64,000 bases of DNA from Oxalobacteraceae bacterium (GTDB lineage Bacteria; Pseudomonadota; Gammaproteobacteria; Burkholderiales; Burkholderiaceae_D), in NCBI GenBank assembly GCA_010024875.1, contig RGFZ01000010.1, positions 4,728 through 68,727 of the forward strand. The letters run 5' to 3'. Under the pieces are notes generated by a model. The model was not told the DNA's origin. It made no database searches and saw nothing but the letters and a program-made list of their open reading frames with translations. Shown here piece by piece: positions 43,965 through 47,838 of the stretch. The first letter of the stretch is position 1; every line of letters starts with the position of its first letter. A program made the position numbers and the translations under genes.

Positions 43965-44747
43965 ATGCTGCACAGCGCAGACATGCACAGAATCAGCGGC
44001 GATGCTCTCATACTTGAGGGCGTCACCCGCGCGTTCGGTGCACTGAAGGCTATCGATGATGTGACATTCAGCGTGCCGGCCGGCGAGCGCCGCGCCGTGC
44101 TGGGAGCGAATGGTGCGGGCAAGACCACGCTGTTCAATGCGATCACGGGCGATTTTCCGCCCACGGCGGGCCGGGTGATGTTCTTTGGCGAGGACATCAC
44201 CCGACTGCCGCCCTATGAACGCATACGACGCGGCATGCGCCGCACGTATCAGTCTTCTTTGTTGTTCCGCGAACTGTCGGTACGGGATAACCTGTATCTC
44301 GCCACGCAAGGCATCAGCGGCGGACGTTTCAGCGTGCTGCGCCGGCGCGATGATGACGCGCTGCTGGCAGCGACTCAGATCCTACTGGACCTGGTGCATC
44401 TCGACCACCTATCGGAGATGCCCGTCAGCCTGCTCTCGCACGGCCAGCAACGTCAGCTGGAAGTCGGCATGGCGCTGGCCGGTGCGCCCCGCCTCATTCT
44501 GTTTGATGAGCCAGCCGCCGGGCTGTCACCCGCCGAACGTCGCGAGCTGGTGAATATCCTGCAAGGCTTACCGCGGCATATAGGCTTTGTGCTCATCGAG
44601 CATGACCTCGACATCGCGCTGCGCGTGGTCGATCGCGTGACCATCATGCACAATGGTCGACTGCTCAAGCACGGCACGCCGCAGGAAATCGAGAACGATG
44701 CCGAAGTGCAGGCAATCTACATGGGGAGCGGTCATCATGGCCATTAA
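43965..44747 (+). CDS. livG: ABC ATP-binding protein (LivG family)
   Basis: GANGAGKT, LSHGQQRQ, LFDEP, IEHD. Confidence 0.92.
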   Translation: MLHSADMHRISGDALILEGVTRAFGALKAIDDVTFSVPAGERRAVLGANGAGKTTLFNAITGDFPPTAGRVMFFGEDITRLPPYERIRRGMRRTYQSSLLFRELSVRDNLYLATQGISGGRFSVLRRRDDDALLAATQILLDLVHLDHLSEMPVSLLSHGQQRQLEVGMALAGAPRLILFDEPAAGLSPAERRELVNILQGLPRHIGFVLIEHDLDIALRVVDRVTIMHNGRLLKHGTPQEIENDAEVQAIYMGSGHHGH

Positions 44748-46992
44748 GTTCTTTGGCCGCGGTGGCGGCAACAGCCCCATTCTCGAGATCTCGAATCTCG
44801 ATATTTACTATGGCAAGGCGCATGCGGTGCAAGGCGTCTCGCTGACTTTACAAAAAGGCGTGCTCGGCGTAGTCGGCAAAAACGGCATGGGCAAGACTTC
44901 GCTATGCAATGCGATCACCGGATTGGTACCGGCGCGCGGCAGCATCAAGCTGGCCGGTGAAGAAATCCTTGGCCTGCCGCCGCATGCGATCACGGCGAAA
45001 GGTATAGGCTATGTGCCGCAGGGACGACGTGTATGGCCATCGCTGTCGGTCGATGAGCACTTGCGTCTGGCTGCAAAAAGCGTACGCAGTGGCGAGTGGA
45101 CAGTGGAGCGCATTTATCAATTGTTTCCCCGTCTGGGCGAGCGCAAGAGTAATGGCGGCTCGCAACTGTCAGGCGGCGAGCAGCAAATGCTGGCGATCGG
45201 CCGCGCGCTGCTGTTCAATCCGCGCCTGCTGGTGATGGACGAGCCCACCGAAGGACTGGCGCCGGTGATCGTCGAGCATGTCGCTGACACGCTGAAGACC
45301 CTGGCCAGCGAAGGCAATATTTCAGTGCTGCTGATCGAGCAGAACCTGGGCGTCGCGGTCGATGTGGCCGACAACGTCGCAGTGATGATGAACGGCCGTG
45401 TCGCGCGTACCCTGCCCGCACGCGAGCTGGCTGCCGATGTGAATCTGCAGCATCAGCTGCTGGGCGTCAGACAGTCTGCCGACGACGAGGGCGGTGCAGA
45501 AGCTTTAACGGTACCCGAAGTCGATGATGAGACGCCAGTGCGCGTATTCACAGTAGCGCGCGCGGAGGACAATGGACTGCCGCGTAATGATGCGACGACC
45601 GATGCTTCGCGCACCGTACGCAACTTCAATCGCTGGAATCAGGGTGCCACAGGTGCGACATTGAAGGATCTTTCGCTGGGCGATCGTCCGTCGGAAGCAA
45701 GTTTTGAACATGTTTCGGCACCCATCGAGCATAAAGCGCAAGTCTTCGAATTCAGTGTTGCGCATACTGCGAACCGTGCAGCCTACATCGCCGGCACCTT
45801 CGACACCAAGGGCCGCGAGCTGTTCTTCCTCAAGAACTGCATGGAAAAGCTTGGCCTTCGCACGGTGACCGTCGATCTATCGACATCGGGCAAACCATCG
45901 CCGGCGAACATTCATCCGCGTGAGATCGCGCGTTTTCATCCCAAGGGCGAACGCGGCGTATTTACCGATGACCGTGGCACGGCGGTCACTGCCATGGCGC
46001 TCGCATTCGAAAATTTCATTGTGTCGCGGCGCGATCTGGGCGGCATGATTTCTGCAGGTGGATCGGGCGGGACCGCGCTGGCCACGCCCGCAATGCGCCG
46101 CCTGCCCGTGGGCATGCCCAAGGTGATGGTGTCTACCGTCGCTTCGGGTGACGTCAAGCCTTATGTAGGCCCAAGCGATATCTGCATGATGTATTCCGTC
46201 ACGGATGTGTCGGGCATCAATCGCATCAGCGAGCGCGTGCTATCGAATGCTGCGCATGCGCTTGCCGGCATGATTGCTTACGCACGTGAAGAATCCAAGG
46301 ACAGCAAGCCGGCGATTGGGTTAACGATGTTCGGCGTCACTACGCCGTGCGTGCAGGCGACGACGAAACTACTGGAAGAGGAATTCGACTGTCTGGTATT
46401 TCATGCGACCGGCACCGGTGGCCAGTCCATGGAAAAACTGGTCGACAGCGGACTCATCTCTGGTGTGATCGATGTCTCCACCACAGAGATCGCTGACGAG
46501 ATCGGCGGTGGCATACTCTCGGCAGGAACGGAGCGCATGGACGCGATCATCCGCTCGCGCATTCCGTATGTCGGTACCTGCGGCGCTCTGGACATGGTGA
46601 ATTTCTGGGCGCGCGACACCGTCCCCTCGAGATTGAATGATCGCCTGTTCTATCAGCACAATCCGAATGTCACGCTGATGCGCACCACTGTTGAAGAGAA
46701 TATCAAGATCGGCGAGTTTATCGCCGGCAAGCTCAATCAAATGGAAGGCCCGGTGCGTTTCGTGTTGCCGATGGGCGGCGTGTCAGCGCTGGATGCGCCC
46801 GGCAAGGCGTTCTGGAATCCCGAAGCGGACAATGCGCTGTTCCAGACCATAGAAAAAAACTTCAGACCGGGCAGTCAGCGACGGCTGATCAAGTCGCCAC
46901 TGCATCTGAATGATCCGCAGTTCGCGGAAGAGCTCGCAAAACATTTTCACGAGTTGAATGCGCAGTCCGGTGCGCGTCGCCGGGCGCTGTGA
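44737..46992 (+). CDS. Fusion: LivF-type ABC ATPase + Tm-1-like ATP-binding (UPF0261) domain
   Basis: N-terminal [19 protein letters not shown], EQN; acidic linker; C-terminal [48 protein letters not shown]; single open frame. Confidence 0.9.
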   Translation: [751 protein letters not shown]

Positions 46993-47004
46993 CGGGAGAC
47001 AAGC

Positions 47005-47838
47005 ATGGCACGCATACCCAGAGAAAAAATACTCGCGAAACTGCACGGCATGATCGCGCGCGGCGAGCCCATCATCGGCGGCGGTGCAGGCACCGGACTG
47101 TCCGCAAAATGCGAAGAGTTGGCTGGTATCGATCTGATCGTGATCTACAACTCAGGCCGTTACAGGATGGCGGGCCGCGGCTCGCTCGCCGGGCTGCTTG
47201 CCTACGGTAATGCCAATGACATCGTAGTCGACATGGCGAAAGAGGTGCTGCCGGTCGTGAAGCACACGCCGGTGCTGGCGGGCGTGAACGGCACCGATCC
47301 TTTCATGTCGCCCGAACCCTTCCTGAAAAAACTGATGGAGATGGGCTTCTCCGGCATACAGAATTTTCCAACGGTCGGCCTGATCGATGGCCTGTTCCGT
47401 GCAAACCTCGAAGAAACCGGCATGGGCTATGGGCTCGAGGTCGAGGTCGTTCGGCTGGCGCGGAAAATGGACCTACTGACCACGCCCTATGTGTTCTCCG
47501 AGCAGAACGCGATCGATATGGCAAAGGCTGGTGCGGACATCATCGTCTGCCATATGGGCTTGACCACCGGCGGGACGATCGGTGCCGATACCGCGCTGAA
47601 GCTACCAGACTGCGTGCCACTGATCGACCAGTGGTGTGCGGCCGCAAAGAAAGTCAATCCAGACGTGATTCTCCTTTGCCATGGGGGGCCGATTGCGATG
47701 CCCGAGGATGCTGGCTATATCCTCAAACATTGTCCGCAGTTGCACGGCTTTTATGGCGCATCGAGCATGGAAAGACTACCGACCGAAGTCGCGATCACTG
47801 AACAGACCAGACAGTTCAAAAAAATAAGCCGCAATTAA
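47005..47838 (+). CDS. PEP-hydrolase-like / TIM-barrel signal-transduction family protein
   Basis: [57 protein letters not shown]. Confidence 0.9.

Follow-up and report, generated by a model that had tools for sequence, protein, structure and literature searches.

The locus described here raises the question of why the ATPase of an ATP-binding cassette (ABC) importer should carry, on the same polypeptide, a whole domain of the UPF0261 family. UPF0261 and the TIM-barrel family PF09370 are widespread, and plant Tm-1, a resistance protein, is built from the two. For the TIM barrel no catalytic activity has been reported, and for UPF0261 only that of MarK (2025). In the stretch analysed, 64,000 nucleotides of contig RGFZ01000010.1 from an Oxalobacteraceae bacterium (assembly GCA_010024875.1; hereafter, the window), one gene encodes a LivF-type ABC ATPase joined through a linker to a UPF0261 domain, and the two genes that follow specify a PF09370 TIM barrel and a flotillin. 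A reading of the window made from its letters alone (the sequence-only reading) had pointed to this gene; the linker motif, the gene order of unfused relatives and the regular company of a flotillin gene and two SRPBCC genes, described below, are additions to it. Comparison with its relatives now indicates that the fusion is genuine and maintained by selection, and suggests that the UPF0261 domain may be an enzyme tethered to the importer.

The fusion gene and its product

Open reading frame analysis of the window found the frame 44653..46992 (+) to be uninterrupted by stops. The likely start is the ATG at 44737, which overlaps the stop codon of the upstream LivG gene (ATGGCCATTAA), has a GGAG box on its 5' side and agrees with the N-termini of homologues. 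A longer product beginning at 44653 was rejected, as its overlap with LivG would be 95 nt and the N-termini of homologues give it no support. The 751 amino acids (aa) of the protein match three Pfam domains: ABC_tran (PF00005; aa 32-171, E 6.5e-26), the UPF0261 N-domain (PF06792; aa 349-516, E 4.4e-61; 206 bits vs a cut-off of 27) and UPF0261_C (PF23189; aa 524-740, E 5.3e-90; 301 bits vs a cut-off of 27). The sequence-only reading had described a single open frame joining an intact LivF ATPase to a full UPF0261 domain, and each part of this description was borne out: the frame is continuous here and in all of the 80 closest loci, the PF00005 match comes with Walker A and B motifs, signature and EQN, and both UPF0261 Pfam domains are present between aa 346 and 751. 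The Pfam scan it had suggested, for PF00005, PF06792 and PF09370, matched all three families.

In the ATPase half, the Walker A motif is GKNGMGKT (aa 47), the signature LSGGE (aa 144) and Walker B LLVMDEP (aa 164), and EQN (aa 201-203, in LLIEQN from aa 198) replaces the H-loop His. The window also encodes a plain LivF of 236 aa, in which EQN recurs; LivG has IEHD. On the strength of the shared EQN, the fused domain is assigned to the LivF type. Across 73 fusion proteins, K53, Q95, S145-Q149 and D168-E169 are invariant. The nearest NCBIfam models are UrtE (217 bits vs a cut-off of 285.8) and LivF (155 bits vs 441), and because both equivalog cut-offs are missed the domain is regarded as LivF-like, without orthology to the ATPases of the systems for branched-chain amino acids or urea. 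The fusion is its transporter's only LivF: the cluster has a single LivG and no second LivF (Pfam, synteny). No TOBE, NIL or ACT-like domain was found by Pfam to follow the fused nucleotide-binding domain. The plain LivF (31742-32452; 42% identical to the fused ABC domain) belongs to a second, ordinary Liv-type ABC system at 26845-32452, with a binding protein, two permeases and LivG, and provides an internal contrast to the fusion.

An AlphaFold2 (AF2) model of the whole fusion has confident ABC (aa 15-243) and UPF0261 (aa 345-745) domains, a predicted local distance difference test (pLDDT) below 50 for linker residues 244-344, and a predicted TM-score (pTM) of 0.44. As modelled, the protein resembles two beads joined by a string. 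A loop at aa 468-494 (window 46138-46218) holds the most conserved stretch of the protein, yet AF2 puts it under a pLDDT of 50; a mobile lid on the active site or an interface for a partner are possible roles.

Conserved residues of the UPF0261 domain

Against NCBIfam model NF002673, the UPF0261 domain scores 617 bits (cut-off 520). Its closest solved structure is that of tomato Tm-1 (3WRY, E 4.7e-97), and MarK (9MPY) is matched at E 3e-55. MarK is the only UPF0261 member with a shown reaction, the phosphorylation of acetovanillone and related phenols with conversion of ATP to ADP; its K16 lies in the ATP site and matches Tm-1 K20, and G195, H219 and H304 are at the substrate site (PMC12624787). 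In the 73 fusion proteins, D356-T357-K358 are invariant and equivalent to MarK D14-T15-K16 and Tm-1 K20; equally invariant are G533, H556 and H641, which map in the alignment to MarK G195, H219 and H304. Both ATP-using modules of the fusion therefore have intact motifs. The ketone-binding His348 of MarK is Leu685 in the fusion, so the substrate specificity would be expected to differ from that of MarK.

A search found 4,435 UPF0261 clusters at 50% identity. In one protein, P0140 (626 aa), UPF0261 is fused to Cupin_5 (DUF985), which shows that other domains for handling small molecules are also among its partners.

Distribution and origin of the fusion

A scan of species-representative genomes gave at least hundreds of relatives among the matches listed, and the closest 80 loci were inspected; in 80/80 of these, the ABC and UPF0261 regions share one stop-free frame. 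A second scan was seeded with distant fusions. Verified fused orthologues, in frame and stop-free, number at least 125 and come from Beta-, Alpha-, Gamma- and Deltaproteobacteria, Methylomirabilota/Rokubacteria and Acidobacteria. The alphaproteobacterial fusions of the second scan are from Bradyrhizobium niftali, B. glycinis, Bosea, Mesorhizobium, Roseisalinus, Phaeobacter, Fodinicurvata and Reyranella, and the same scan supplied gamma- and deltaproteobacterial examples. Isolates that carry the fusion include Variovorax paradoxus VAI-C (on a complete replicon) and ISL-3, Pseudorhodoferax Leaf267, Bradyrhizobium niftali and Reyranella soli. In a simple distance tree (neighbour-joining) of UPF0261 domains, 124 fused leaves form one clade, the only intruders being two contig-edge cases, and it is on this basis that the fusion is taken to have arisen once and then to have spread across phyla.

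The unfused relatives suggest what preceded it. Polaromonas, Sneathiellales and Granulosicoccaceae have separate genes for LivH, LivM, LivK, LivG, LivF, UPF0261, the TIM barrel and an SRPBCC protein; in these, LivF ends with ...LLGVS-stop, and UPF0261 starts about 50 nt further on, in another frame. LivF and UPF0261 are likewise split and adjoining in Actinomycetes, Chloroflexi, Falsiroseomonas, Roseococcus and Thermomicrobium roseum (on a plasmid), and the same genes lie close together in other orders in Paraburkholderia and roseobacters. Altogether, LivF is directly 5' of UPF0261 in 19/65 unfused loci. Because unfused loci also pair them, the link between Liv importer, UPF0261, TIM barrel and SRPBCC is independent of the fusion, which, judging from these gene orders, made an existing partnership permanent.

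The UPF0261-TIM pair is also found in other company. In Terriglobia and Enterobacteriaceae there is no transporter nearby, and on the symbiosis plasmid pNGR234a of Sinorhizobium fredii NGR234 (NC_000914.2, 274054-291232) a free pair lies by a CUT1 sugar ABC importer. Given these transporter-free and CUT1-linked contexts, the pair appears to act as a portable enzyme module. The pNGR234a pair is also near genes for a cupin, a Gfo/Idh/MocA oxidoreductase and a sigma-54 regulator, and free UPF0261 genes are common on Rhizobium/Sinorhizobium plasmids (159/223 matching records).

The linker

The linker had been described as acidic and about 100 aa long. The length holds for the window, and the acidity for the first half only; over its whole length there are 18 acidic and 10 basic residues. 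Among orthologues it ranges from 77 to 145 aa. Of its three conserved islands (Table 1), the second carries a [T/N]RW motif, which is NRW (aa 298-300) in the window. TRW or NRW is present in 120/125 fused linkers, and the motif is retained in distant fusions with 53-59% identity to the window's UPF0261 domain. The replacement of a gap of about 50 nt by 77-145 aa with an invariant Arg and Trp argues for selection on the linker itself.

Two variants were seen. The corresponding motif in Bradyrhizobium niftali, of the alphaproteobacterial branch, is SNPxxPTRWSQPVP, compared with RTVRGFTRWN. In the metagenomic protein P0124 (718 aa), a variant fusion, Walker A is degenerate (GLDASQAT) and a clear [T/N]RW is missing; this protein may be an ATPase-dead offshoot.

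The TIM barrel, flotillin and SRPBCC genes

The fusion ends with TGA at 46990-46992 and the TIM barrel begins with ATG at 47005, leaving the gap of 12 bp that the sequence-only reading had reported; the TIM barrel is full-length, matching PF09370 over profile positions 1-267 of 267 (434 bits, cut-off 33.8). That reading had also held that this gene completes the architecture of Tm-1, which is correct at the level of the operon and incorrect for a single polypeptide, given the intervening stop and gap. Its suggestion that the two proteins are partners gained good support: in 76/77 close loci with room downstream the TIM barrel follows directly, UPF0261 and PF09370 are elsewhere fused to each other in both orders, and their co-evolution has been published (PMC5028733). 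AF2 modelling of the TIM barrel from its single sequence gave a mean pLDDT of 42.8, too poor for a fold search, and in a profile search of the PDB the FMN-type barrels (nitroalkane-dioxygenase, FabK) were insignificant (E 0.07-0.14).

The flotillin has a hydrophobic N-terminus, evident from the translation, and matches Band_7 (E 5.7e-16) and Flot (E 1.9e-36) in Pfam; an orthologue is annotated by the Prokaryotic Genome Annotation Pipeline (PGAP) as 'flotillin family protein'. The gene is without the usual NfeD-type operon partner, its neighbours being the TIM-barrel and SRPBCC genes with nothing between. Among loci with at least 4.5 kb downstream, all 95 fused loci have the flotillin, as does 1 of 51 unfused loci; the TIM barrel is found in 93 and 47 of them, and SRPBCC in 95 and 32, respectively. 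The lone unfused locus with a flotillin (L125) is from a metagenome-assembled genome, with fragmentary ABC, UPF0261 and flotillin matches, and is probably a frameshifted fusion. An SRPBCC gene is found 3' of the TIM barrel in many unfused loci, and since it comes right after the TIM barrel there, the flotillin was inserted within a conserved TIM-SRPBCC pair; by this comparison, flotillin, fusion and linker were gained at one and the same node. The core of the fused clade comprises LivK, LivH, LivM, LivG, the fusion, the TIM barrel, the flotillin, SRPBCC and an SRPBCC-quinone-reductase-like protein.

In the alphaproteobacterial branch, exemplified by Bradyrhizobium niftali (L145, 12809-15709), the flotillin is about 966 aa, nearly twice the 572 aa of that in the window, to which it gives two separate matches; the change in the linker motif of this branch goes along with it. 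The two SRPBCC domains of the window (49606-50049 and 50065-51534) are in tandem, 56% identical, and both conserved across the fused clade.

Proposed function

The explanation proposed, which we would back about as readily as doubt, is a tethered catalytic module, in which a Liv/HAAT importer ATPase carries a UPF0261 enzyme domain that acts on the imported compound. LivG and the fusion would energise import via LivH, LivM and LivK, and the linker would hold the UPF0261 domain at the inner mouth of the transporter, where substrate could be captured on entry. The UPF0261 domain, the separate TIM barrel and the ligand-binding SRPBCC proteins would then form a cytoplasmic processing module for the compound. 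By analogy with MarK, the capture chemistry is most likely ATP-dependent phosphorylation. In the membrane, this assembly of importer and enzyme probably has the operon's flotillin as its scaffold. The [T/N]RW motif of the linker, which probably also has a physical role, is the best candidate for a docking site. Where the sequence-only reading had left the choice between a regulatory and a substrate-trapping module, we lean towards catalysis, rather than regulation, because the equivalents of D-T-K and of MarK Gly195, His219 and His304 are invariant and the tether is long and mostly disordered.

The substrate is inferred to be hydrophobic, aromatic or quinonoid. The closest solved structures to the periplasmic binding protein are 4ZPJ, followed by 4EVQ, 4EY3, 4EVS and 4F06, the last four of which we take to be aromatic-acid binders.

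Since MarK and Tm-1 are dimeric and there is one LivF per transporter, dimers of the tethered domain would bridge two transporters. This leads to a more ambitious proposal, put forward tentatively, that the fused clade has a flotillin-scaffolded transport metabolon: [T/N]RW would dock the ATPase to the flotillin or to the membrane interface, UPF0261 dimers would cluster the transporters, and the compound would be passed on to UPF0261, TIM barrel and SRPBCC.

Several observations weigh against a tethered catalytic module. Wild-type MarK was nearly inactive before an E16K change (PMC12624787). The residues that argue for catalysis are family-wide, Tm-1 included. The AF2 model (pTM 0.44) gave neither a fixed contact between the domains nor a placement for the linker motifs. 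With a single origin, the correlation of fusion and flotillin represents one event and its strict retention in widely divergent hosts, not a repeated association. The stand-alone UPF0261-TIM contexts of Terriglobia and Enterobacteriaceae gave no consistent hint of a substrate, and a search of the PDB with a profile of the TIM family found only 2P10 to be significant beyond chance. Finally, one subclade (L162, L164 and L165) keeps the fusion, the flotillin and both SRPBCC genes without an adjacent TIM barrel. These loci, from Mesorhizobium sp. LHD-90 and relatives, have no TIM gene between UPF0261 and the flotillin; in them it may be encoded elsewhere in the genome or be dispensable.

Alternative explanations

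The alternative that fares best, though we consider it unlikely, is a regulatory sensor: UPF0261, with or without the TIM barrel, would bind ATP or a metabolite and switch the LivG/LivF ATPase, leaving the transported compound unaltered. C-terminal regulatory domains on importer ATPases are textbook knowledge, trans-inhibition in MalK, MetN and ModC being well established, and Tm-1 is seen in its solved structures to bind ATP, with no reaction known. PF09370 was formerly named 'TIM-barrel signal transduction protein', which records an earlier guess at regulation (PMC5028733), and the pNGR234a pair adjoins the sigma-54 regulator. A long and largely disordered tether, however, is unlike a compact appended domain, and it is not only the ATP motif that is invariant but also the equivalents of MarK G195, H219 and H304. 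UPF0261 is a free protein next to LivF in many relatives, and the occurrence of the UPF0261-TIM-SRPBCC unit without a transporter fits a self-contained enzyme module better.

It could also be supposed that the fusion is a convenience of co-expression, in which the LivF stop was lost and equal amounts of the two proteins are all that was gained, with the proximity, linker motifs and flotillin having no functional link. Such a fusion would be easy to make, as LivF is directly 5' of a separate UPF0261 gene in the nearest unfused relatives, and after a single origin its later spread could be hitch-hiking. This is distinctly unlikely in view of the linker, which is 77-145 aa where the gap was about 50 nt and keeps its invariant Arg and Trp down to about 53% identity. 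Moreover, 0/125 verified members have reverted to split genes, and 0/95 fused loci with room downstream are without the flotillin.

Very unlikely is an energy-coupling or membrane-lipid module, in which UPF0261 and the TIM barrel would leave the imported solute alone and, with flotillin and the START-like SRPBCC proteins, would handle a hydrophobic membrane molecule, or else regenerate or relay phosphoryl groups (from ATP and a donor resembling phosphoenolpyruvate, PEP) to the benefit of the transporter. SRPBCC proteins are known binders of hydrophobic ligands and flotillins organisers of lipid microdomains, and the Pfam name of the TIM-barrel family is 'PEP hydrolase-like'. In MarK, about 25 A separates the ATP site from the substrate site, a distance that points to phosphoryl transfer over a long range (PMC12624787). 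The proposal is nevertheless pure conjecture; the PDB profile search, with its match to 2P10 only, gave no sequence evidence tying PF09370 to PEP-using enzymes, and the binding protein and permeases are of the small-solute type.

The chance that a sequencing or assembly error joined two genes is virtually nil, as the same in-frame join is found in 125 independent genomes, isolates among them, and the 80/80 stop-free close loci together with the fused orthologues exclude a frameshift or assembly artefact.

Neighbouring genes and annotation

The coordinates of the fusion, its parts and the surrounding genes are collected in Table 1. The operon was called on the basis of short gaps and synteny; scans for promoters and terminators gave matches that were not above shuffle expectation. 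Four accessory hydrolase genes upstream of LivH are syntenic in the beta-proteobacterial clade and missing from most alphaproteobacterial members. The two amidohydrolases are 62% identical, flank the alpha/beta hydrolase and have ochratoxinase-like amide hydrolases and the Arg carboxypeptidase Cc2672 as nearest solved relatives, a hint that in this branch of the clade the substrate may resemble an N-acyl amino acid. Divergent from the cluster, a TetR-family regulator and a flavin monooxygenase (FMO/BVMO-like) occupy 33413-35861 (-); the cluster's substrate may be sensed by the TetR protein. In another locus (L108), a TetR gene also adjoins a stand-alone UPF0261-TIM pair.

Table 1. Position of the fusion gene, its parts and the surrounding genes in the window
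Feature	Position	Strand	Remarks
LivF::UPF0261 fusion gene	44737..46992	+	751 aa plus stop; three Pfam domains; 125 fused orthologues
LivF-type ABC nucleotide-binding domain	44737..45468	+	aa 1-244, ends ...QLLGV; PF00005; confident in AF2
Linker	45469..45771	+	aa 245-345; mostly disordered; three conserved islands
Linker island 1, VRVFTVARA	45538..45564	+	consensus V[F/Y]TVRRA; R275 invariant
Linker island 2, with [T/N]RW motif	45610..45639	+	consensus RxVRGFTRWN; R299, W300 invariant
Linker island 3, QVFEFSVA	45739..45762	+	consensus RVxEFPVA; just before UPF0261 domain
UPF0261 (Tm-1/MarK family) domain	45772..46989	+	aa 346-751; FDTK (355-358), FHATG with H556, QHNP with H641
PF09370 (PEP-hydrolase-like, TBST) TIM barrel	47005..47838	+	277 aa; Pfam E 1.8e-130; 2P10 E 7.6e-123
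Flotillin	47891..49609	+	572 aa; N-terminal hydrophobic segment, SPFH/Band_7, Flot domain
SRPBCC (Polyketide_cyc2) protein	49606..50049	+	start overlaps flotillin stop by 4 bp; in 95/95 fused loci
SRPBCC + NADPH:quinone-reductase-like dehydrogenase fusion	50065..51534	+	Pfam, NCBIfam, synteny
VOC/glyoxalase-family protein	51561..52040	+	accessory; Pfam; syntenic in part of clade
LivG-type ABC ATPase, partner of fusion	43920..44747	+	ABC_tran plus BCA_ABC_TP_C; start uncertain; in 80/80 close loci
Periplasmic substrate-binding protein	42532..43818	+	Peripla_BP_6 (Pfam)
LivM permease	41304-42419	+	Pfam BPD_transp_2; synteny
LivH permease	40356-41300	+	Pfam BPD_transp_2; synteny
Amidohydrolase 2	about 39040-40335	+	accessory; Pfam, NCBIfam
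Alpha/beta hydrolase	38207-38983	+	accessory; Pfam, NCBIfam
Amidohydrolase 1	about 36910-38193	+	accessory; Pfam, NCBIfam
FAH-family hydrolase	36005-36898	+	accessory; Pfam, NCBIfam
TetR-family regulator, divergent	35097..35861	-	Pfam TetR_N; candidate cluster regulator

All domains of the cluster belong to known families, and the architecture is already in databases, with the Joint Genome Institute (JGI) naming both halves. In Variovorax paradoxus VAI-C (CP063167.1, 1993849-1996101) the fusion is annotated 'ABC transporter permease', as it is in several other NCBI records; the name is wrong, since the fusion protein is without a membrane domain. A literature search turned up only 8 papers that name UPF0261 and found no paper on the fusion, the linker motif or the flotillin-containing cluster, and none on the NCBI product names, the function of PF09370 or enzyme-fused importer ATPases.

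Significance

A UPF0261-TIM pair that is wired to a specific importer offers a path to its native substrate, as the ligand could be isolated by means of the binding protein. In this way both the native biochemistry of the Tm-1 family and the specificity of a bacterial flotillin become open to direct test, and the fused clade is a natural setting, defined genetically, in which to ask whether the flotillins of bacteria build specific complexes of transport and metabolism. If the metabolon proposal were true, the flotillin would be the first to be encoded within an operon and to serve a single importer-enzyme complex, and the cluster would give convenient bacterial access to the ancestral biochemistry of plant Tm-1.

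Comparison with known systems

Among characterised relatives, MarK (Saro_1862 of Novosphingobium aromaticivorans, 9MPY) has the same two-domain fold family and keeps the D-T-K motif and the G195, H219 and H304 equivalents. It differs in being a free homodimer with neither a TIM-barrel partner nor a transporter, and its identity to the fused domain is about 35%. MarK acts with a carboxylase and a phosphatase on acetovanillone, whereas the fused domain is tied to an importer ATPase. Tm-1 (3WRV-3WRY) and the plant Tm-1-like proteins are the closest solved UPF0261 relatives and have the partner TIM family, PF09370, in common with the cluster; in Tm-1, which is known as an inhibitor of a virus replicase, UPF0261 and TIM barrel are one chain, whereas here they are encoded by two genes and UPF0261 is fused to the ABC ATPase. 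The nearest solved relative of the TIM barrel, the structural-genomics target Mll9387 of Mesorhizobium (2P10), is about 72% identical over its whole length and adjoins a free UPF0261 gene on its plasmid, not a fusion.

The importer ATPases MalK, MetN, ModC and OpuA likewise have an extra module at the C-terminus of the nucleotide-binding domain. In MalK, MetN and ModC this is a compact regulatory domain appended directly under the ATPase dimer, and OpuA has CBS domains. All four modules are small and ligand-binding, in contrast to the domain of 400 aa described here, which is of an enzyme family and is held on a disordered tether of about 100 aa. Uptake is coupled to immediate chemical capture in group translocation by the phosphotransferase system (PTS) and in vectorial acylation by FadD or FATP. 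The logic proposed for the fusion would be the same, in that the substrate is modified at the exit of the transporter and so cannot leave; there is no homology to these systems, and the capturing agent would here be a soluble enzyme, tethered to a primary ABC importer. For the flotillin, the closest parallel is in Staphylococcus aureus, where the ABC permease IsdF depends on the flotillin FloA (PMC10147376), so that an ABC importer needs a flotillin scaffold, as is proposed here. FloA, however, is a housekeeping scaffold for general use and its gene lies elsewhere, whereas the flotillin of this cluster lies inside the operon and is specific to the fused clade.

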